Of a stretch of 14,415 nt of DNA, positions 3,502 to 14,342 are shown piece after piece; positions within the stretch are counted from its first letter, which is position 1, and each line of letters starts with the position of its first letter. Under the pieces are notes generated by a model. The model was given only the letters and a program-made list of their open reading frames with translations, was not told where the DNA came from and did no database searches. Both the position numbers and the translations under genes were made by a program. Source of the stretch: a virus; the UHGV virus genome UHGV-0068976. One strand, 5' to 3'.

Positions 3502-4050
3502 TTATTTAGCTAATTTTTTCCAGATTGCTGAAACGTATTTGGCTTGGTGGATGGCATCATCAAGCGCGTTGTGGCGAGTTCCTTTGAATGGCATATCTCG
3601 CTTAGGGTCGAATCCTATTACCTTTCCAAGCTCGACGATTGTTCTTACGTCGCGGTCATTCCACCACTGCCACGGAACTGGCCACCCTGTCAGCGAATAA
3701 CTGTTTCGGAGAATAACGCAGTCAAATGATGCTCCATTCCCCCAAACCTGAACGAATTTGTGGTTAGCGTTCTTTATGATGAATTCAGATAACCATGAAA
3801 GAGCCGTTGAAAGCTCCTGAGCGTTGCTGGTTAGCGATTTTCTGGCTTCTTCACTCTGTTCCAGCCACCATAAAATCGTTGAAGCGTCAGGACGCGCCCG
3901 ATATCGCATTGATGACTCAAGCGAGATATTTACCGAGAACTCTTCTCCTGTTTCTCCGGTATTCGGGTCAAAGAATACCGCCCCAATAGAAATAACTGGC
4001 GCGTATGGCCCGTTGCCCATTGTTTCAAGGTCAACCATCAAGTGATTCAT
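3502..4050 (-). CDS. DnaQ-like (DEDDh) 3'-5' exonuclease
   Basis: 182-aa ORF. Exo I-type motif MVDLETMG near the N-terminus and H-x4-D Exo III-type motif (HNALDDAIH) near the C-terminus. Start ATG 8 nt after the ssb stop with AAGGA in between. Confidence 0.8.
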   Translation of the reverse strand: MNHLMVDLETMGNGPYAPVISIGAVFFDPNTGETGEEFSVNISLESSMRYRARPDASTILWWLEQSEEARKSLTSNAQELSTALSWLSEFIIKNANHKFVQVWGNGASFDCVILRNSYSLTGWPVPWQWWNDRDVRTIVELGKVIGFDPKRDMPFKGTRHNALDDAIHQAKYVSAIWKKLAK

Positions 4051-4058
4051 GTAAGTCC

Positions 4059-4565
4059 TTAAATTGCGTGAATAGCGTGACGAGGGAAGGGGAGAGTTAC
4101 TGGTGCAAAGGGTATATCGTCGTCAAAATCCATCGGAGGTTCGTTGTGTTGTGCTGGTGATGATTGCTGCTGTGGCTTCTGTGATTGCCTGCTGGCTGCT
4201 TGTTGTTTGCTGTCGCCAATGCCGCCAAGCATCTGCATCACGCCATTAATTCCGACATGAACCTCGGTTGTGTAACGGTCTTGCCCTGACTGGTCTTTCC
4301 ACTTTCTGGTTCTCAGCATTCCCTCGAAATAAATCTGATCACCTTTTTTCACATACTGCCCCACGACCTCAGCCAGTTTCCCGGATACAGCAACACGATG
4401 CCATTCAGTCAATTCCTTTTGCTCGCCAGTATTTTTATCTCGCCATTGTTCTGACGTGGCTATTGTCAGGTTAGCGAACGCTGTTCCTGATGGTGAGTAT
4501 CGAACTTCCGGGTCTTGTCCTACCCGACCAAGGATAATCACCTTATTTACGCCTCTGCTTGCCAT
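4059..4565 (-). CDS. ssb: Single-stranded DNA-binding protein (SSB) with extended C-terminus
   Basis: N-terminal OB-fold region is a close match to bacterial SSB as recalled ([44 protein letters not shown]...), followed by a Q/P/S-rich linker and the acidic tip MDFDDDIPF. The frame continues 15 more codons ([15 protein letters not shown]) to TAA at 4059-4061. ATG at 4563-4565 directly abuts the upstream gene's TAA. Confidence 0.92.
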
Positions 4566-5273
4566 TTATGCCGCCTGTTTTAGTTCGTTAACTCTGATGT
4601 TCATTATCTGAACGCATTTAGCCTGCGCCTCCTCGTTGCCAGCCATTAATTGCCAGTCACGCTGATAACGCTCGATGAGTTTTTTCTTGTCAGTTTCTGT
4701 TGACGCATAATCGCTGAAGTCTTTCAGGATTTGTTCGCAGTCAACCGATGGAGATTTCTGGTTGGTATTTTCTGGTGATGGTTTGTTATCTGATGCTGGG
4801 ATTGCCCATCCCGGAAGCGATGGAGGGAGCCAGTAAAATCCTGTTCCATCCTTCAGTTTTGCCCTGTGCCACCCCTGCTTTTTATCGAGAGATGTTTGTG
4901 CGAAACCTTCCTCAAGGTTATACAGATACCGACCGATTCCCCACTGAACGGCAGCGCGCTTCATTGCACCGGAACGACCACCTTTGACGGCTTCTACCTG
5001 CGTGTTTTCAGCAGCATCCCATTTGGTTACCCATTCGGAATCAATCTTTATTGATATGCCGCATTCAACGCCGCCGTTGTTGGGAATATCGCGGTATTCA
5101 TTGCGCCATCCTGCTTTGCCGCAAACATCGTCCAGGCGTTTCATGATTGCCCGGTTCGTGACATAAGCCAGCACCATAGCCCACACCTTGCCATCGCGTG
5201 TTTTACCGCTTTGCTGTATTCGCCATTCGATATCTTCAGGGCTGAATGGCTCATCGAATTTGTTCAAATCCAT
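4566..5273 (-). CDS. Single-strand annealing protein, Rad52/Erf-like recombinase
   Basis: 235-aa ORF immediately upstream of ssb and the exonuclease (TAA-ATG junction). N-terminal region (GKVWAMVLAYVTNRAIMKRLDDVCGKAGWRNEY) resembles Rad52/Sak-type annealing proteins as recalled; C-terminal tail (ETDKKKLIERYQRDWQLMAGNEEAQAKCVQIMNIRVNELKQAA) resembles the C-terminus of P22 Erf as recalled. SD GAGGTGA precedes the start. Confidence 0.75.
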   Translation of the reverse strand: MDLNKFDEPFSPEDIEWRIQQSGKTRDGKVWAMVLAYVTNRAIMKRLDDVCGKAGWRNEYRDIPNNGGVECGISIKIDSEWVTKWDAAENTQVEAVKGGRSGAMKRAAVQWGIGRYLYNLEEGFAQTSLDKKQGWHRAKLKDGTGFYWLPPSLPGWAIPASDNKPSPENTNQKSPSVDCEQILKDFSDYASTETDKKKLIERYQRDWQLMAGNEEAQAKCVQIMNIRVNELKQAA

Positions 5274-6552: not shown

Positions 6553-6825
6553 TTACCTCGCTGTCAGTTGTTTTGATTTCCGGTATCCTGCCGCGTAAAG
6601 AGCTACGTTTGGCAGGCAAATACTTCCACTGCGTTCATCTTCTTCCTTACAGCGAAGGCTTCCGAGTGATGCTGCTTTATCTGCTCTGACGCAACCAGAG
6701 AGCTTTAGCGCAATTTTTCGCGCCAGTGCTTCATTACTGCGTCGCTCGGCAATAAGTTCTGCTCTGCGAGCTTTGTAGCGGCTTTTTGCCGTACCTTTGG
6801 ATTCTTTCCAGACAATGGTTACCAT
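6553..6825 (-). CDS. N: N-like transcription antitermination protein (P22 gp24-like)
   Basis: 90-aa product from ATG at 6823-6825 with SD AAGGAGA. N-terminal arginine-rich motif (GTAKSRYKARRAELIAERR) and C-terminal LPNVALYAAGYRKSKQLTAR, which closely resembles the C-terminus of the P22 N-like protein as recalled. Lies directly downstream of a boxA/boxB nut site and the pL/OL region. Confidence 0.8.
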   Translation of the reverse strand: MVTIVWKESKGTAKSRYKARRAELIAERRSNEALARKIALKLSGCVRADKAASLGSLRCKEEDERSGSICLPNVALYAAGYRKSKQLTAR

Positions 6826-6935
6826 GATGGTCTCCTTTAAGTGGCTTTGGCGCATGACGCGTCGAGGTGCTTATCTTCTCGATCGCTGTCTTGCAGCTGC
6901 AATTCGCGCCATCCCCAAAACCACTCAAGTTCTGG

Positions 6936-7302: not shown

Positions 7303-7327
7303 TAAAAAACCCGGCTCGGTGGCCGGG
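7303..7327 (-). terminator. Intrinsic terminator downstream of the two-gene cassette
   Basis: Minus-strand RNA: CCCGGC-CACCGA-GCCGGG followed by UUUUUUAUU (plus-strand stem 7310-7327, A-run 7303-7309). Lies 8 nt past the stop of the 310-aa gene. Confidence 0.7.
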
Positions 7328-7334
7328 TGAGATA

Positions 7335-8267
7335 TTAAAGAACCGATTTAACAAGATGGTTTTTACGGTACAGACCTATGCGATCATTGTGAATCTCAGT
7401 AGTCTCCACTAAAAGAGAAACAATCTGTCCGACCTTGTGTTTTTTTTGTATTAAATCTAGCATTTCAATCGGATAGGAAGCCTTTAAATGTTCACCACCA
7501 ACATCAAGCTCCAGCTTCCCATATTTGGATAGAACGACCAGTTCGCCTGTAACCGTTTCAGTAATGGGAGGGGATGAAATGGTTGATGTAAGTCTACTCA
7601 CCAAGTACTTAATTTTATTGGAGTCAATAGTTGCCACCTTGGTGCCATTACTAAATGGACCGGTCCAACTTGCATCAAATGTTAAGTTGTGTTTATCGCA
7701 TTCCTCTACGATTCTCTTAAGGCTTACAGTGGAATTGTATCCAATTTCAGCGACGTGATTCATGAAGTTGTTGTCGTCATCGCTTAACAACAAATCGAAT
7801 ATGCCTTTTACAGCCTTGCTGGGTACTGTTTCTACTAATTCTGCTATTCCTGTAGAGAAGGTGACGCCCAATTTTGTAGACCCAGGGGATAAATCAGCCA
7901 GCCTGAGGTTTAAGGAGCTTTTCACGTCGTAGGGAACTTTTTTTGAGTCCTTGCCTGAGGCAATTTTGTGTGTTGCTCTTTGTATTAGCGCTGCAAGATT
8001 TGTTGAAATAGCCCCAAGCAGCTCTAAAGGAATAGAGCCAAAGTCAACCTCAGAGCCTTTCAGCCGCAGCTCAAAAAAATCGATAAGTGGGTGCCGACTA
8101 TCTTGCTTTAATTTTTCGGCCTTCAAATCGCTCAGATGAGAATCCATGGAGCGATAAAGAAGCATGTCAGCAAAGGACCTGGTTTTGTTTTGCTTCATTG
8201 CATCGACTTCTTTTTGAATGAAATCAATGCGTTTATCGCAATTTTTAAACATTGATTTATCATTCAT
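7335..8267 (-). CDS. Hypothetical 310-aa protein, second gene of the accessory cassette in the cI-pL interval
   Basis: Long ORF in AT-rich DNA. ATG at 8265-8267 overlaps the upstream gene's TGA (ATGA coupling) with SD GAGGA 7 nt upstream. No recognisable catalytic motif by eye. Followed by a strong terminator. Confidence 0.8.
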   Translation of the reverse strand: MNDKSMFKNCDKRIDFIQKEVDAMKQNKTRSFADMLLYRSMDSHLSDLKAEKLKQDSRHPLIDFFELRLKGSEVDFGSIPLELLGAISTNLAALIQRATHKIASGKDSKKVPYDVKSSLNLRLADLSPGSTKLGVTFSTGIAELVETVPSKAVKGIFDLLLSDDDNNFMNHVAEIGYNSTVSLKRIVEECDKHNLTFDASWTGPFSNGTKVATIDSNKIKYLVSRLTSTISSPPITETVTGELVVLSKYGKLELDVGGEHLKASYPIEMLDLIQKKHKVGQIVSLLVETTEIHNDRIGLYRKNHLVKSVL

Positions 8268-8743
8268 AAAAAAATCCTCACTAACCCTTTCGGGTTTTCA
8301 CTGCGATCAAAACCAAACCAACCGCGCCAGTAGCTACGCCAGTACTCATAATCATAGTTAGGGTCATCTAAATTCTTCATGAGTAGTAGGACATCAATTT
8401 TGTAGTTTTGTTTGATGTAGTTTCGGTCAAGCAAATTATCGACGCGGCCCCGAAGCATGACAGGTATTGAGTTTATATTGCTATAGTCACATACCAACAA
8501 AATATCAATATCATCAGGCTCTGGTTTAGACGTGGTGTATGAACCATCAACCCATATTTCTGTAAAACAGCCATATTGAGCAGATAATTCTCGAATAGAT
8601 TCGAGTAGCTGTATAAAATTACAGTATAGCATGCCTCGCCTGGATGATGAAGGAAAGCAATCGACACAATACGATTTTAATCCAGCTTCATCCATGTCAT
8701 GGAACCCTGGCTCAAACAGGGGTGGGTAATTAATTTTATCCAT
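8264..8743 (-). CDS. Minimal nucleotidyltransferase-fold protein (Pol-beta superfamily-like), first gene of the accessory cassette
   Basis: 159-aa ORF with AAGG SD. Contains GS-x9-D-x-D (VDGSYTTSKPEPDDIDILLV), the signature arrangement of Pol-beta-type/minimal nucleotidyltransferases, with a further acidic residue on a hydrophobic stretch (KIDVLLLM). AT-rich codon usage. Confidence 0.8.
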   Translation of the reverse strand: MDKINYPPLFEPGFHDMDEAGLKSYCVDCFPSSSRRGMLYCNFIQLLESIRELSAQYGCFTEIWVDGSYTTSKPEPDDIDILLVCDYSNINSIPVMLRGRVDNLLDRNYIKQNYKIDVLLLMKNLDDPNYDYEYWRSYWRGWFGFDRSENPKGLVRIFL

Positions 8744-8891
8744 AAAAAACCTTGCTATACATTTGTTTTTTTATTAAAAATCTAACCACCGAAATGGTGA
8801 CGGCAAGATGTTACATGGGGTTACAATCAGCCAATACACCGCATTAAATAATTTTTTCACCAGCTATGCGCCGACCAGAACACCTTGCCCA

Positions 8892-9539
8892 TCACCCAAA
8901 CGTCTCTTCAGGCCACTGCGCCTTAACTACCTTGCCTATGATGCGGCAGCTATGGTCGCAATCCAGGGTTCTATATGCCGGGTTTAAAGGTACCAGGTAA
9001 CTAACCCCTGCATCCTTCTCATACTTCTTGAACGTTGCCTCTGAATCACCATTTGCAGAAGCCACGCAGAAATCCCCAGACTCTACCGGCTCAGCCGGAT
9101 CAACGAGTATCAGCATGCCTTCCGGAAAACTTGGACGAACCCCCTGAGGCGCCGTCATTGAATGCCCCTTCACCTCAAGCCAGAAAGCTTTTTCGCTGGC
9201 TTTTGTGGTCGTTGGGACCCATGCCTTTGCATCGCTGGCTGTGTAGCTTCCCACCTCCGAAAATGGCCCGGCCTGCACTGAAGAAAATAACGGGTATTCA
9301 TATTGGCGAAATACGGCGTCTGAATCCTCGCCAAACATTATTTTTGCCGGAGATACGCCGAGTGCCGCCCCAAGAACCAGCGCGTCATCCGCGCTAACCT
9401 TTCTTGTTCCTAACTCGTAGTTCCCCAGGCGTGAAGGCGCAGCCCAGCCGCAAAGCTTGGCCAATTGAGCCTGGCTAAGTCCTTTAGCTTCTCTAAGGGA
9501 CTTGATCCTTTCCCCGATAATTTCATGCATCGTTTTCAT
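8892..9539 (-). CDS. cI: CI-like phage repressor (N-terminal HTH, C-terminal LexA/S24-type autopeptidase)
   Basis: 215-aa ORF divergent from a cro-like gene across an operator-bearing intergenic region. N-terminal HTH segment ([24 protein letters not shown]), candidate Ala-Gly cleavage site (VQAGP), and serine/lysine dyad motifs (GHSM; FKKY) typical of S24 self-cleaving repressors. Confidence 0.9.
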
Positions 9540-9552
9540 CCCTTAAATGTAA

Positions 9553-9617
9553 CACGCAACGTGATTGAACTCTGTACACGAATTGAGGTTGACTGTTAAT
9601 CACAAATTGTGTGTAAT
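9553..9617. promoter_or_regulatory. OR operator cluster with candidate pR (and divergent pRM) between cI and cro
   Basis: Three dyad sites spaced 24 bp: CACGcaaCGTG 9553-9563, CACGaatTGAG 9577-9587 (imperfect), CACAaatTGTG 9601-9611. Same family as OL. Candidate pR -35 TTGACT 9589-9594, 17-bp spacer, -10 TGTAAT 9612-9617. The cI start codon has almost no leader, consistent with a lambda-like leaderless pRM transcript. Confidence 0.6.
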
Positions 9618-9647
9618 GGGTGTGTGATTAATACTAGGGAGACCGCA

Positions 9648-9866
9648 ATGAACAAAATTGCCCAGCAGCGAAAAAAAATCGGAGTTTCGCAAGCTGTACT
9701 AGCTTCGGCAATTGGTTGGGGGCAATCCCGCATCGCCAACTATGAGCTGAATATCCGTACTCCTGGCCTTAACGATTGCCGAATGATCGTAGAAGGCCTC
9801 AGGAAGTTAGGGTGCCAATGTTCTTTGGATGATGTTTTCCCTCCATCCAGTAACAAAGCCGCCTAA
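9648..9866 (+). CDS. cro: Cro-like HTH (XRE-family) regulator
   Basis: 72-aa product from ATG at 9648-9650 with SD GGGAGA. HTH segment (IGVSQAVLASAIGWGQSRIANYE). Divergently oriented from cI across the operators. Confidence 0.8.
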   Translation: MNKIAQQRKKIGVSQAVLASAIGWGQSRIANYELNIRTPGLNDCRMIVEGLRKLGCQCSLDDVFPPSSNKAA

Positions 9867-9983: not shown

Positions 9984-10280
9984 ATGACACAAGCAAGTTA
10001 CAGCAAGCCAACACAGCGAGAAATTGATCGCGCTGAAACTGATTTACTCATCAACCTGTCAACGCTTACCCAGCGCGGTCTGGCAAAGATGATTGGCTGT
10101 CATGAATCGAAGATAAGCAGAACGGACTGGAGATTTATTGCTTCGGTCTTGTGTGCTTTCGGAATGGCATCAGACATCAGTCCGATTAGCAGGGCTTTTA
10201 AGTATGCGCTTGATGAAATCACAAAGAAAAAATCCCCGGCTGCCACCGAGGATTTTAAGCAAATTGATATGCAATTCTGA
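9984..10280 (+). CDS. cII: CII-like transcriptional activator
   Basis: 98-aa ORF immediately after cro/nutR. C-terminal [18 protein letters not shown] closely parallels the lambda CII C-terminus (KKRPAATERSEQIQMEF) as recalled; central HTH-like [14 protein letters not shown]. Confidence 0.85.
9993..10006 (-). promoter_or_regulatory. Candidate CII-binding direct repeat (TTGC-N6-TTGC) of a pRE-type promoter
   Basis: Minus strand reads TTGCtgtaacTTGC, matching the known CII recognition pattern, and lies just inside the 5' end of cII as in lambda. An AT-rich -10-like region follows leftward. Confidence 0.5.
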
Positions 10281-10312: not shown

Positions 10313-10459
10313 ATGACAAAACAACTCAGTCCTTACCAGGACAAAATTCACAAACACATACTACGTGATCGCTTCCTGTCCAGCTTCAAGCAGCCTGGTC
10401 GATTCCGGTCTGAGTTGGAAAAAGTGAAGCTGATGCAGAAGGAGAAAGGTCATGAGTAA
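10313..10459 (+). CDS. Hypothetical small protein (48 aa)
   Basis: Hand-translated ORF ([48 protein letters not shown]) with SD GGAG 5 nt upstream. Its TAA overlaps the O-like gene start (ATGAGTAA). Confidence 0.45.
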
Positions 10460-11312
10460 TATTGCAACCGTAACACATTTAAGGCCTTCACAACGGCCTG
10501 TGGAGCGTCGTGTGGCAGAAGTTGAAGATGGTTATACCCGTCTTGCAAATGCCCTGTATGAAGAGCTTATCGGCGCAGATTTAACGAAAAATCAGAGCAA
10601 GGTTGCCCACGCCATATGCCGTAAAACATACGGCTACGGTAAAAAGATGGATCGCATCTCTGATAGTCAGTTAGCTCAAATTACCAGGCTGCCAAGACAG
10701 AAGGTAAACAAGGCCAAGAATGAGCTTATCGCGATGAAGGTTATCCTTCGCGAAGGCCAGCAAATCGGGCCTAACAAGAACATCGAGGAATGGCAAATCG
10801 AAGGGTGTCACTACTCTGGTGATAATGTCACTGCATTGGTGACAAAAAGTGTCACCAAAACGGTGACAGCGCTGTCACCAAAACAGGGACACACAAAAGA
10901 AACTATTACAAAAGAAAAAAGAAATAATAAAAACACTATGTCCGAAAGTGTTCGGACGGAGTGTGAAAAATCACCTGACCGTCACGAAGAAACCGACAAG
11001 GCATTCGAGGAAATATTCTGGTGTGCAGGCATGCGGAAAGCCGGGAAGAAAAACGCAGCTTCGGCATTCAGAACACAGTTCAGGGAATGGCGTAAAACTA
11101 CCAGGGGTACGGCAAGCGAGTTTGCCACGATGCTGGCAGAAGACATCGCATGCAGGAATGGTAAGCAGTTCGGATTCGACAGGTTGTTACCATCGAGCTA
11201 CCTGAACGGTCAGCGCTGGAACGACGAGAAGCCAGAAACCATTCAACCACAATCCAAACCATCATCCGCAATCACCGTATCGAAAACTGGCTACGTGTTT
11301 TTCGACAGGTGA
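10452..11312 (+). CDS. O: Replication initiator, lambda O-like
   Basis: 286-aa ORF. N-terminal domain strongly resembles lambda O as recalled ([58 protein letters not shown]). Iteron-like repeats and an AT-rich tract lie inside the coding sequence, as for ori-lambda. Confidence 0.85.
10807..10940. repeat. Origin-like iteron array plus AT-rich tract inside the O-like gene
   Basis: Four 19-bp dyad-containing repeats: degenerate GTCACtactctGGTGAT 10807-10825, TGTCACtgcattgGTGACA 10826-10844, TGTCACCaaaacGGTGACA 10850-10868, TGTCACCaaaacAGGGACA 10873-10891. Followed by an A/T-rich stretch to about 10940. Confidence 0.7.
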
Positions 11313-11315
11313 ACC

Positions 11316-11423
11316 ATGAAATCAAAAATCAAATCGCTACTGGTCGCTGGTTATAACCACGGCTGGTTAAGTATTTCGTTTGTCGATTTCTGGTTTAAAA
11401 ATCTCAATCTGAGGGAATCATGA
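11316..11423 (+). CDS. Hypothetical small hydrophobic peptide (35 aa)
   Basis: Hand-translated ORF (MKSKIKSLLVAGYNHGWLSISFVDFWFKNLNLRES) between the O stop and the primase-helicase start; its TGA overlaps the downstream ATG (ATGA). Weak SD. May simply be spacer. Confidence 0.25.
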   Translation: MKSKIKSLLVAGYNHGWLSISFVDFWFKNLNLRES

Positions 11424-13300
11424 CGCCAAGTGAACTCAGTGACCTGCTTTGGGCGCAGGTTGACAGGGTGGCTCCGCACCTGTTGCCAAACGGCAAGAAA
11501 GAGGGGCATGAGTGGGTTGCCGGTAACGTCAACGGTGACAAGGGAAACAGCCTTAAGGTCAACCTTAGCGGCAAGAAAAAATGGGCTGATTTCGCTGAGG
11601 GAGACGGCGGTGACATGCTTGATTTGTGGATGGCATGTCGTGGAATTAACCTGCATCAGGCTATGCAGGAAGCGAAAGCCTTTCTCGGAATCAAGGATGA
11701 CGATCACCATTTCGATGCCAAACGTGAGAAGAAATTCTCCAGACCTGACCGCAAGAAAATCGCCCGCTACGTTACCAGAACAGAATCCCATCTTGAGTAC
11801 CTGCAATCGCGTGGCATATCGCCAGAAGTCGTAAAGCGCTACGAGGTTGTCAGCGGCAAGGTGTGGAATGGAGAACGGGAACTGGATGCTCTGGTGATTC
11901 CGTACAAACGCGATGGTGAGTTGTTGCAGGTCAAGCGAATCAGCACTGAGCGCCCGGACGGGAAGAAAGTCATTATGGCAGAAGGTGATTGCGAACCTTG
12001 TCTGTTCGGATGGCAGGCTCTGGACGCTGGCGTGAGGGCGGTTGTACTTTGCGAAGGCGAAATTGATTGTATGAGCTATGCGCAATATGGCATCTCGGCG
12101 TTATCCGTGCCGTTTGGTGGCGGGAAAGGCGCTAAACAGCAGTGGATTGAGTTTGAGTATCACAACCTCGACAGGTTTGAGGAAATATTCATCTCGATGG
12201 ACGTTGATGATGTTGGTCGTGAAGCCGCAAGGGAAATCGCAAGCCGACTCGGTGAACATCGTTGCCGTCTTGTTACTCTGCCGTACAAAGACATCAACGA
12301 ATGCCTGATGAACGGTGTTACCGAGGATGAAATCTGGCAGTACATCGGCACGGCATCCTACTTCGATCCTGAAGAACTCTACAGTGCGCGAGAGTTTTAC
12401 CAGGACACTATCAACGCTTTCTACGGCAAGCAGCAGTATCTGTTTAATCCACTGTGGGAATCTCTGGCAGATAAATTCCAGTTCCGTGAGGCAGAGTTGA
12501 CGCTGGTCAATGGTGTGAACGGTCACGGAAAAACGGAGGTTGTAGGGCATATGGCACTTGAGGCAATGCGTCAGGGTGTGAAGACGTGCATCGCGTCACT
12601 TGAGCTGAAGCCAGGCATTCTCCTTAAGCGACTTACCCGTCAGGCGACGTGCTGCAAGATGCCGCCAGTGCTGGAAATTGACTCTGCATTTAAATTTTAT
12701 GACGAAAGACTTTGGGTGTTTGGCCTGACCGGAACGGCGAAAGCCGACAGGCTGATCGAAATATTCGACTACGCTCGCCGCCGATACGGCATCCAGTTAT
12801 TCATCATCGACAGCCTGATGAAATGTGGCATAGGCGACGATGACTATAACGGGCAGAAGGCGTTTGTTGACTCGATTTGCGATTTCAAAAACAAAACAAA
12901 CTCCCACGTCATTCTCGTTACTCACTCGCGAAAAGGTGACAGCGAAGAAAAACCAACCGGGAAAATGGACGTAAAAGGATCTGGAGCGATAACAGACCTG
13001 ACAGACAACCTTTTCATCATCTGGCGTAACAAGGCTCGCGAGAGAGCGTTACAGAGAGTTCAGAGTGGTGAAAAGATGTCAGAGAAGGACGAACAGCTAC
13101 TGGCATCTCCGGCATCTGTTTTGATGCTTGAAAAGCAACGTAACGGCGAAGGTTGGGAAGGTGGTGTCCCGTTGTTCCTTGACGAGCAATCGCACCAGTT
13201 CCTGCAACTTGAATCAGGATCGCCTTATAGCTACATCGCCAATATGCCGAAATCGGAATATGACGAGGCGTGGCGACAGGAAAACGTGACGGAGTATTAA
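11420..13300 (+). CDS. Bifunctional DNA primase/helicase (TOPRIM domain plus RecA/DnaB-like NTPase)
   Basis: 626-aa ORF with SD GAGGGAA. TOPRIM-like acidic motifs (VVLCEGEIDCMSY; ISMDVDDVGRE), Walker A (GVNGHGKT) and Walker B-like (LFIIDSLMK) motifs. Occupies the slot of lambda P / P22 gene 12 after the initiator. Confidence 0.85.
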   Translation: MTPSELSDLLWAQVDRVAPHLLPNGKKEGHEWVAGNVNGDKGNSLKVNLSGKKKWADFAEGDGGDMLDLWMACRGINLHQAMQEAKAFLGIKDDDHHFDAKREKKFSRPDRKKIARYVTRTESHLEYLQSRGISPEVVKRYEVVSGKVWNGERELDALVIPYKRDGELLQVKRISTERPDGKKVIMAEGDCEPCLFGWQALDAGVRAVVLCEGEIDCMSYAQYGISALSVPFGGGKGAKQQWIEFEYHNLDRFEEIFISMDVDDVGREAAREIASRLGEHRCRLVTLPYKDINECLMNGVTEDEIWQYIGTASYFDPEELYSAREFYQDTINAFYGKQQYLFNPLWESLADKFQFREAELTLVNGVNGHGKTEVVGHMALEAMRQGVKTCIASLELKPGILLKRLTRQATCCKMPPVLEIDSAFKFYDERLWVFGLTGTAKADRLIEIFDYARRRYGIQLFIIDSLMKCGIGDDDYNGQKAFVDSICDFKNKTNSHVILVTHSRKGDSEEKPTGKMDVKGSGAITDLTDNLFIIWRNKARERALQRVQSGEKMSEKDEQLLASPASVLMLEKQRNGEGWEGGVPLFLDEQSHQFLQLESGSPYSYIANMPKSEYDEAWRQENVTEY

Positions 13301-13329: not shown

Positions 13330-13360
13330 AGGCCTGCTGGTAATCGCAGGCCTTTTTATT
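13330..13360 (+). terminator. Intrinsic terminator (tR2-position) between the replication genes and ninB
   Basis: Plus strand: AGGCCTGC-tggtaatc-GCAGGCCT (8-bp perfect stem) followed by TTTTTATTT. In lambda, tR2 sits at the equivalent place upstream of the nin genes. Confidence 0.6.
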
Positions 13361-13377
13361 TGGGGGAGAGGGAAGTC

Positions 13378-13818
13378 ATGAAAAAACTAACCTTTGAAAT
13401 TCGATCTCCAGCACATCAGCAAAACGCTATTCACGCAGTACAGCAAATCCTTCCAGACCCAACCAAACCAATCGTAGTAACCATTCAGGAACGCAACCGC
13501 AGCTTAGACCAAAACAGGAAGCTATGGGCCTGCTTAGGTGACGTCTCTCGTCAGGTTGAATGGCATGGTCGCTGGCTGGATGCAGAAAGCTGGAAGTGTG
13601 TGTTTACCGCAGCATTAAAGCAGCAGGATGTTGTTCCTAACCTTGCCGGGAATGGCTTTGTGGTAATAGGCCAGTCAACCAGCAGGATGCGTGTAGGCGA
13701 ATTTGCGGAGCTATTAGAGCTTATACAGGCATTCGGTACAGAGCGTGGCGTTAAGTGGTCAGACGAAGCGAGACTGGCTCTGGAGTGGAAAGCGAGATGG
13801 GGAGATCGGGCTGCATGA
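13378..13818 (+). CDS. ninB: NinB (Orf-family recombination mediator)
   Basis: 146-aa product from ATG at 13378-13380 (MKKLTFEIRSPAHQQNAIHAVQQILPDPTKPIVVTIQERNRSLDQNRKLWACLGDV...), which I recognise as essentially the lambda NinB sequence. Not verified by search. Confidence 0.9.
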   Translation: MKKLTFEIRSPAHQQNAIHAVQQILPDPTKPIVVTIQERNRSLDQNRKLWACLGDVSRQVEWHGRWLDAESWKCVFTAALKQQDVVPNLAGNGFVVIGQSTSRMRVGEFAELLELIQAFGTERGVKWSDEARLALEWKARWGDRAA

Positions 13819-14342
13819 CTATCAAATCAAATACGCCAGCACACGACAAGGACTGCTGGCAAACGCCGCTTTGGCTTTTTGATGCACTGGATATTGAGTT
13901 TGGATTCTGGCTGGATTCGGCAGCGAGCGACAAAAATGCTCTGTGTGCTCACTGGCTAACTGAGGCCGACGACGCGCTCAATTCTGAGTGGGTAAGCCAC
14001 GGTGCAATCTGGAATAACCCACCGTACAGCAATATCAGGCCGTGGGTGGAAAAAGCCGCTGAGCAGTGCATACAACAGCGACAGACGGTAGTTATGCTTG
14101 TGCCAGAGGATATGTCAGTCGGATGGTTCAGCAAGGCTCTGGAGAGTGTCGACGAAGTTCGCATTATCACTGATGGACGGATTAATTTTATCGAACCATC
14201 GACAGGGTTGGAGAAGAAGGGAAACAGCAAAGGCTCCATGCTGCTGATTTGGCGACCGTTCATCAGTCCTCGACGGATGTTTACTACCGTATCCAAAGCG
14301 GCATTGATGGCGATCGGGCAGGGCGTCAGGAGGGCGGCATGA
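13815..14342 (+). CDS. Phage DNA N6-adenine methyltransferase (Dam-type)
   Basis: 175-aa product from ATG at 13815-13817, overlapping the ninB stop (ATGA). Conserved [13 protein letters not shown] near the N-terminus and the amino-methyltransferase catalytic motif NPPY (IWNNPPYSN). Confidence 0.85.

Follow-up and report, generated by a model that had tools for sequence, protein, structure and literature searches.

A two-gene cassette occupies positions 7327-8858 of UHGV virus genome UHGV-0068976, a stretch of viral DNA of 14,415 nt that is referred to below as the window. Profile searches, residue conservation and a predicted fold support the identification of its gene A (8264-8743, minus strand) as a genuine, intact but divergent minimal Pol-beta-type nucleotidyltransferase. 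The 310-residue product of gene B (7335-8267, minus strand) looks like a binding or scaffolding protein, apparently non-enzymatic, with a predicted C-terminal OB fold. The two genes form an obligate pair and are located directly downstream of a prophage repressor gene. The reading that we prefer, for which we put the chances at about even, is that lysogens express the cassette as a defence or toxin-antitoxin-like module, of which A would be the enzyme while the OB-fold protein B would sense or target nucleic acid. Our confidence in any particular substrate for A is much lower.

Small Pol-beta transferases are versatile immune enzymes that AMPylate toxins (the minimal nucleotidyltransferases, MNT), block tRNAs (MenT) or make decoy or inhibitory nucleotides (Hailong and Clover). 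PDC-M63, one of the phage defence candidates (PDC) of the PADLOC database, combines such a transferase with an OB-fold protein across many bacterial phyla. The cassette in the window is a member of PDC-M63 and of the Pfam family DUF6932, from which it differs in no respect. PDC-M63 is already catalogued, as a computational candidate only, for which neither a fold nor the architecture of the partner nor a mechanism had been described; what is new here is the architecture of the partner, an OB fold plus a helical hairpin, and the repressor-linked placement. The partner protein, and likewise the mechanism proposed below, would set the cassette apart from all characterised enzymes of this type.

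Gene A as a minimal nucleotidyltransferase

Gene A is an open reading frame (ORF) of 159 codons whose protein starts MDKINYPPL. An AAGG ribosome-binding site lies 7 nt 5' of its ATG, and the plus-strand reading of 8264-8743 is riddled with stop codons. The peptide VDGSYTTSKPEPDDIDILLV, quoted in the original prediction made from the sequence of the window, was found in this protein together with the predicted GS-x9-DxD spacing: G67-S68 (8540-8545) is followed after nine residues by D78-I-D80 (8504-8512) in a hydrophobic stretch, and the acidic residue expected further downstream is D117 within KIDVLLLM (codon 8393-8395, minus strand). The classical Pol-beta signature, reportedly formulated by Aravind and Koonin in 1999, is hG[GS]-x9-13-Dh[DE]h with an h[DE]h further on. 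Gene A contains VDGS-x9-DIDILL (hG[GS]-x9-DhDh; codons 8504-8545, minus strand), in which the Dh[DE]h element follows hG[GS] at a distance within the range of 9-13 residues, and the third carboxylate of the h[DE]h type is provided by KID117VLL on a neighbouring strand (residues 116-123).

Conservation was assessed with 81 full-length A homologues from loci of a one-genome-per-species collection, which cover many phyla at 27-62% identity. G67, S68, D78 and D80 are present in all 81 sequences, and D117 in 78, the remaining three having His. G67, S68, T71, K73, P76, D78 and D80 are also invariant in an alignment of 53 sequences (A1), and D117 is nearly so. Since the catalytic residues are kept across phyla at this level of divergence, the active site is under strong purifying selection, and judged from the aligned sequences GS-x9-DxD is no chance motif in gene A. 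This pattern bears directly on the possibility that A is a relic, i.e. a catalytically dead scaffold whose likeness to transferases has no functional meaning. Activity of A is a prediction, and the fold-search statistics described below are weak, as might be expected of a relic; however, neither purifying selection on GS, DxD and the third Asp nor recurrent weak matches to three independent transferase families would then be expected, and we consider this explanation very improbable.

A further conserved element, the family-specific C-terminal motif RSYWRGWFGF (R136-F145; 8309-8338, minus strand), is aromatic and basic in character and invariant in alignment A1. Among the 81 homologues Y138 was found in 73, W139 in 78 and F/Y143 in all, and the downstream residues K152 and G153 in 80 and 81, respectively. 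This motif may constitute an acceptor- or nucleotide-binding element. The cysteines in CVDCF and YCNF, which the original prediction had pointed out, are not conserved in alignment A1, where the family consensus reads FVxxF and RF, and a functional role for them was rejected. The first 60 residues, also described as having no obvious assignment, proved to be of two kinds. Residues 1-33 are a family-specific extension with conserved G13, H15 and F30 and remain without assignment, whereas residues 34-57 form a long helix just ahead of strand 1 of the transferase core; R36, at the start of this helix, is invariant in the family.

Profile searches placed gene A in DUF6932 (PF22014) with an E value of 1.7e-24 and 87.3 bits (gathering cut-off 27); the match spans residues 8-157 of 159 and profile positions 7-141 of 142. 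Gene A also matched PADLOC model PDC-M63A (1.8e-41) and PHROG 9194 (2.3e-64), and the same Escherichia coli gene is named 'DUF6932 family protein' in RefSeq. NCBIfam contained no model matching A or B. A homologue search with A yielded 95 relatives, every one of which carries DUF6932. Weak matches to the Pfam transferase families Polbeta, NTP_transf_2 and DNA_pol_B_palm were obtained for 33, 32 and 29 of 53 A members, respectively. No significant match resulted when the sequences in the Protein Data Bank (PDB) were searched with A and B or with profiles of either; the A profile retrieved only Pol beta, at an E value of ~0.2.

The AlphaFold2 (AF2) model of A had a predicted local distance difference test score (pLDDT) of 96.3 and a predicted TM-score (pTM) of 0.89. 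It consists of helix 34-57, strand 60-66, the GS pair, strand 79-86 beginning at DxD, and strand 116-123 with D117, such that GS follows strand 1, strand 2 begins with DxD, and strand 3 carries D117. This alpha-beta-alpha-beta-alpha-beta core of ~90 residues superposes on known Pol-beta members, and residues 1-33 and ~125-159 are specific to the family. When the model was compared to the PDB using Foldseek, the best neighbours were minimal and MNT-type transferases and aminoglycoside adenylyltransferases (ANT), including 2rff (E value 4e-3) and the MNT antitoxins 7ae2_B and 7ae9 (probability up to 0.96); CdnC, AAD(9) and Pol beta were further neighbours. These statistics are weak, as no match had an E value below 1e-3 and TM-scores were ~0.3. 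As the profile, conservation and fold evidence are concordant, and as both the Pfam search and the structure prediction that had been proposed as checks agree with it, we conclude that the assignment of A to the Pol-beta superfamily is well supported.

The partner protein and its portable hairpin

A is the first and B the second gene of the cassette, in keeping with the original designation of A as cassette gene 1. The two genes overlap by 4 bp, with the A stop codon and the B start codon combined in the sequence ATGA (8264-8267, minus strand), an arrangement indicative of translational coupling. We examined 84 genomic loci, 80 of them from the one-genome-per-species collection, which represent Proteobacteria, Bacteroidota, Bacillota, Acidobacteriota, Nitrospirota, Verrucomicrobiota and Parcubacteria. 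A B-type gene was found directly 3' of 81 of the 85 A genes in these loci, most with the 4-bp overlap, and B was downstream of A in 80 of 80 loci from viral contigs. The converse search was carried out with a narrower B alignment (A2), the broad alignment (A3) being too diverse; full-length A was 5' of B in 59 of 60 further B loci, and the lone exception was cut by the end of the contig. Even in distant pairs the partners are true B homologues (22-25% identity; BLASTP E values of 8e-32 and 4e-20). We conclude that the pairing of A with B is obligate.

B is split into two ORFs or frameshifted in four genomes in which A is intact (L018, L027, L049 and L078), owing to pseudogenisation or assembly error. 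If these cases are real, intact A is tolerated without full-length B. Two distant relatives were seen in Streptococcus. Phage MissE1 contains an A-like gene followed only by a 55-residue ORF (L093, 2429-3069), beside a RelE-like toxin gene and ImmA, and phage satellite Javan304 carries an A-like gene and a 294-residue B-like gene (L094, 2501-3806; E value 2.6e-14 against the B profile) in its regulatory module.

Gene B matched PDC-M63B (7.5e-45) and PHROG 6603 (3.4e-147). No Pfam family matched B, none recurred when 94 diverse members were scanned, and no sequence relative of B was found in the PDB. An exhaustive B profile search returned 269 cluster representatives; nearly all of the 150 listed were 300-330 residues long. 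An AF2 model built on the alignment of 94 sequences (pLDDT 91.3) describes a soluble alpha/beta protein with three parts. Residues 1-60 (8088-8267, minus strand) form a helical hairpin with helices at 10-25 and 32-57. Residues 61-231 (7575-8087, minus strand) form a central alpha/beta domain with the conserved motifs ELRLxG...GSxPL and LRLA..PGST, and residues 232-310 (7338-7574, minus strand) an OB fold like those of SSB, RPA or RuvA, with strands 1-3, a helix and strands 4-5. Conserved positions in the 94 sequences are mostly Gly, Pro, Trp and Leu. The sole invariant polar residue is S130 (94 of 94; codon 7878-7880), at the turn between strands 122-127 and 131-138, and in the hairpin S40 and H44 are conserved in 74 and 62 sequences, respectively. 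No conserved catalytic residue and no nuclease or HD motif was identified in these members. A transmembrane effector role was rejected because hydrophobic segments are absent from B (maximum 19-residue Kyte-Doolittle mean of 1.38). Residues 62-146 (7830-8082) weakly match the N-terminus of another PADLOC candidate, PDC-M32A (E value 3.4e-5), which suggests that the two proteins share a domain.

The few A genes with a different neighbour were informative. The partner consists of the hairpin joined to a TPR protein in L020 (6445-7455), L060 (5741-6673) and L074 (6462-7499), of the hairpin and OB domain only (133-135 residues) in L057 (6444-6845) and L063 (6444-6851), and of the hairpin joined to an unrelated domain in L047 (6464-6961). 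In L083 (2719-9026), a Bacteroidota metagenome-assembled genome, A lies between an N6-adenine methyltransferase gene (1046 residues) and a helicase gene resembling that of a type I restriction enzyme (HsdR-like), and residues 1-60 of the helicase match PDC-M63B model positions 1-60 (E value 3.6e-5); this is a single case. The N-terminal hairpin of ~55 residues is thus the only part retained in every type of A partner, and for this reason we propose that it is the docking site for A. The combination of a constant enzyme with variable ligand-binding domains (OB and TPR) fits an effector-plus-sensor arrangement. A profile search with the hairpin alone against 5.8 billion proteins gave one trivial match, a 60-residue coiled-coil profile being too weak in a set of that size.

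The structural neighbours of A raise the possibility of type VII toxin-antitoxin logic, in which A would nucleotidylylate B, as MntA AMPylates HepT, and thereby control it; the hairpin or the S130 loop would be the modified site. The nearest Foldseek structures are MNT antitoxins that are complexed with, or AMPylate, HEPN toxins (7ae2_B, 7ae9, 8xeo, 8xeh, 7bxo and 6m6u). In solved MNT-HEPN systems the transferase gene comes first, as A does in the cassette, and the invariance of S130 at a strand turn and the conservation of S40 and H44 in the one element common to all partners would suit an acceptor site. B itself is the difficulty. HEPN was rejected because no HEPN family matched above noise in the 94 members and the lone R-x4-H (R39-H44) has a non-conserved Arg, and toxin-like catalytic residues are lacking. 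Simple mutual dependence is also hard to reconcile with intact A beside disrupted B in four genomes, with the reservation about assembly noted above. We consider this explanation quite unlikely. MntA differs from A in other respects as well: its partner is a HEPN RNase of ~130 residues with a conserved Rx4-6H rather than a 310-residue hairpin/OB-fold protein, A has the extra N-terminal extension and the RSYWRGWFGF motif, and the similarity between the two is marginal (E value at best 4e-3, TM ~0.3).

An OB fold is a natural receptor for a single-stranded oligonucleotide, which suggests a guard model like that of Hailong or Clover. A would constitutively make a short oligonucleotide or nucleotide signal that the OB fold of B holds, keeping B inert, and removal of this ligand by a phage nuclease or single-stranded DNA (ssDNA)-binding protein would free B to act, e.g. 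by coating host or phage ssDNA. In two characterised two-gene systems a small Pol-beta transferase is indeed a negative regulator that makes the ligand of its partner: HalB supplies HalA with oligo-dA, and CloB supplies CloA with p3diT (PMC13276650; PMC12265719; PMC13434031). The cassette resembles both in being a two-gene module with a small Pol-beta transferase and an active site of the form [DE]h[DE]...h[DE]h, and its partner has an OB fold that might, in principle, accept an oligonucleotide product. However, HalA is a transmembrane ion channel and CloA an HD-domain dNTPase, namely a dGTPase, whereas B is soluble and has no transmembrane segment, HD or nuclease motif, conserved catalytic residues or other recognisable killing domain. 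Neither an HD-domain protein nor any other coupled partner lacking the hairpin was found beside A in 165 loci. In addition, the TPR and mini-OB partner variants are implausible as effectors, a docking hairpin that is portable would suit a stable complex better than a diffusible signal, and no solved structure labelled Hailong or HalB was present among the listed matches of two PDB fold searches, the comparison with HalB being by these labels only. We regard the guard model as unlikely.

The original prediction also named AbiE-type toxins and CBASS cyclases, together with MNT antitoxins, as relatives of A; A belongs to none of these systems, each of which fails on a defining partner or domain feature. 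AbiEii and MenT (DUF1814) are, like A, transferase-fold proteins, and serve as effectors in modules of the toxin-antitoxin or abortive-infection kind. MenT nucleotidylates tRNA 3' ends, which provides a precedent for the effector role that we propose for A. However, A is about half their size and its partner is not of the AbiEi type; neither A nor B gave a DUF1814/AbiEii-type or AbiEi-type match in Pfam or PADLOC, and no MenT structure was among the top fold matches of A. CBASS combines a two-lobed CD-NTase with a Cap effector that has a signal-sensing domain, and no such combination was found here. At 159 residues, compared with ~300 for a cGAS/DncV-like enzyme, A is too small to be a CD-NTase, as had been recognised.

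The repressor-adjacent slot, proposed mechanism and defence candidacy

A cI-type repressor gene (helix-turn-helix (HTH) and S24 peptidase domains by Pfam and record annotation; 8892-9539, minus strand) lies directly upstream of gene A, and an intrinsic terminator (7309-7328, minus strand; 7-bp stem with six GC pairs, then TTTTTTATT) lies directly 3' of B. The immunity region is 99.6% identical to that of Escherichia phage mEpX1, in which both cassette genes are annotated as hypothetical. In a blastn comparison with the Stx1 prophage VT1-Sakai, which has the same cI allele, the common flanks stop at 7326 and resume at 8859. From these boundaries we conclude that 7327-8858 is an exchangeable cassette (moron) between conserved prophage flanks, with a lower GC content of 0.39-0.42. 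VT1-Sakai has an unrelated 183-residue ORF in this slot (H0053; L085, 1839-2390), with no PADLOC match. The terminator falls within the flank shared with VT1-Sakai, and the Sakai record marks a putative rho-independent terminator of the pRM transcript at the corresponding place.

The repressor differs among mEpX1, PhiR30_1, Erwinia phage vB_EhrS_59 and a Rac-like E. coli prophage, and the cassette has this same placement in all of them. An HTH or cI-like gene is directly upstream and on the same strand in 61 of the 80 viral loci, and clustering at 60% identity gave 21 clusters, indicating that at least 21 repressor types precede the cassette in viral contigs. Few complete E. coli genomes (18 of 5,426) have the allele present in the window. 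As the slot is directly 3' of the repressor gene and 5' of the terminator, the cassette is probably transcribed in lysogens, with cI the likely source of this transcription. A prime lysogen-expressed position next to at least 21 immunity types implies a selected function in the lysogen. The slot between cI and the terminator is that of lambda rexAB, the lambda record having rexB just beyond the shared cI 3' end (H16). rexAB is expressed in lysogens and has an exclusion function, RexA being a sensor and RexB a membrane protein; the cassette, which is unrelated to rexAB in sequence or fold, instead encodes a transferase and an OB-fold protein, both of them soluble. Within the 148 nt that separate cI from A there is a weak terminator-like hairpin (8785-8804; six pairs, including three GC pairs), after which comes a T-rich, AT-rich run. 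This hairpin could attenuate read-through from PRM or precede a promoter of the cassette's own.

Selection on the active site of A, its strict coupling to a hairpin-bearing partner, an OB fold without catalytic residues, ligand-binding partner variants and the repressor-adjacent slot together point to an enzyme-plus-sensor module that acts in lysogens. In the mechanism that we favour, B would dock onto A via its N-terminal hairpin, and its OB fold would bind single-stranded nucleic acid, e.g. a phage replication or recombination intermediate, or RNA. A, the only enzyme of the pair, would thereby be targeted or switched on and would transfer nucleotides to a nucleic-acid 3' end, for which MenT is the precedent, or to a protein, with the outcome that the superinfecting phage or the infected cell is stopped. 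A broader version of this proposal is possible, and we advance it tentatively. The DUF6932 transferase and the ~55-residue hairpin would be a portable catalytic plug-in for proteins that sense or act (central/OB, OB-only, TPR or type I restriction helicase), and PDC-M63 would represent a new class of transferase-based immunity in which a sensor of single-stranded nucleic acid activates or aims A. In this version the chemistry of A (3'-end tailing, capping or nucleotidylylation of the partner) would be unlike that of CBASS, Hailong, Clover, MenT or MNT-HEPN.

The original prediction noted that enzymes of this kind recur in toxin-antitoxin and anti-phage systems, and this is borne out to the extent that both cassette genes match PDC-M63; they are adjacent, match PDC-M63A and PDC-M63B, and are in the order of the model names. 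Such candidates were nominated by being embedded in BREX, DISARM or type I restriction-modification (RM) systems (PADLOC candidates; bioRxiv 10.1101/2024.01.29.577857). Among our loci, the A-B pair of L004 adjoins a type I RM system and a YoeB/YefM pair, gene A of L083 is inside an RM operon, and one non-phage locus is beside a large helicase.

Several observations weigh against a defence module. Deletion of PDC-M63AB from a prophage of E. coli NILS69 left susceptibility to 10 virulent phages unchanged (bioRxiv 10.1101/2024.12.20.629700). In non-phage loci the genes next to the pair vary, most of them having housekeeping functions, and only a handful of 139 flanking ORFs match defence models. 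No promoter was identified for the cassette, and the weak hairpin between cI and A makes co-transcription with cI less certain. Finally, the closest structural neighbours of A (MNT and ANT) act on proteins or small molecules instead of nucleic acids. Strong enrichment in defence islands was considered and rejected, as the immediate neighbours are heterogeneous in the 80 species genomes. In the literature, the NILS69 native-host deletion was the sole experimental test of PDC-M63 that we found, and we found no paper mentioning DUF6932, the function of the mEpX1 cassette or a defence system that joins a transferase to an OB-fold protein; the main text of the DefensePredictor preprint has no mention of nucleotidyltransferase, OB fold or DUF6932.

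The negative deletion test and the many chromosomal copies amid housekeeping genes would also be explained by a non-immune role such as repair or tailing of RNA or DNA 3' ends, control of induction, or stabilisation of the prophage (addiction) without an anti-phage effect. A widely scattered pair of overlapping genes fits a plain addiction module as well, and the arm of the prophage that bears the cassette also encodes a single-stranded DNA-binding protein (SSB), a Rad52-like annealase and an exonuclease. Such a role is harder to reconcile with occupation of the rexAB position, linkage to at least 21 repressor types, the copies embedded in or adjoining RM systems, and nomination of the family through guilt by embedding, and we judge it improbable. 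A defence or toxin-antitoxin-like module remains our preferred reading. Its partner architecture, portable hairpin and lack of a toxin-like domain turn a database candidate into a testable system, for which phage mEpX1 on E. coli K-12 is a cultivable model. Should the cassette prove active, transferase-based immunity would gain a new sensor-enzyme arrangement; should it have no effect on phages, a defence label assigned by genomic context would have failed in a well-documented case.

Organisation of the surrounding prophage

The window is a lambdoid prophage. Genes for an integrase (27-1322) and an excisionase (1368-1643) are followed by an early left operon (3502-5273), in which genes for an Rv2179c-like 3'-5' exonuclease (3502-4050), SSB (4059-4565) and a Rad52-like annealase (4566-5273) adjoin one another, and by N (6553-6855). 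Beyond the cassette and the repressor gene are cro (9609-9866), cII (9984-10280) and a replication module (10452-13300) consisting of O (10452-11312) and a gene for a Toprim/DnaB-like primase-helicase of 626 residues (11420-13300), with NinB (13360-13818) and Dam (13755-14342) downstream. mEpX1 instead has O and DnaC. Because the replication modules differ, we conclude that the window is a mosaic prophage that has only the immunity region in common with mEpX1. An ORF of 244 codons initiated by TTG (11351-12085, minus strand) is antisense to the start of the primase-helicase gene and is probably spurious.

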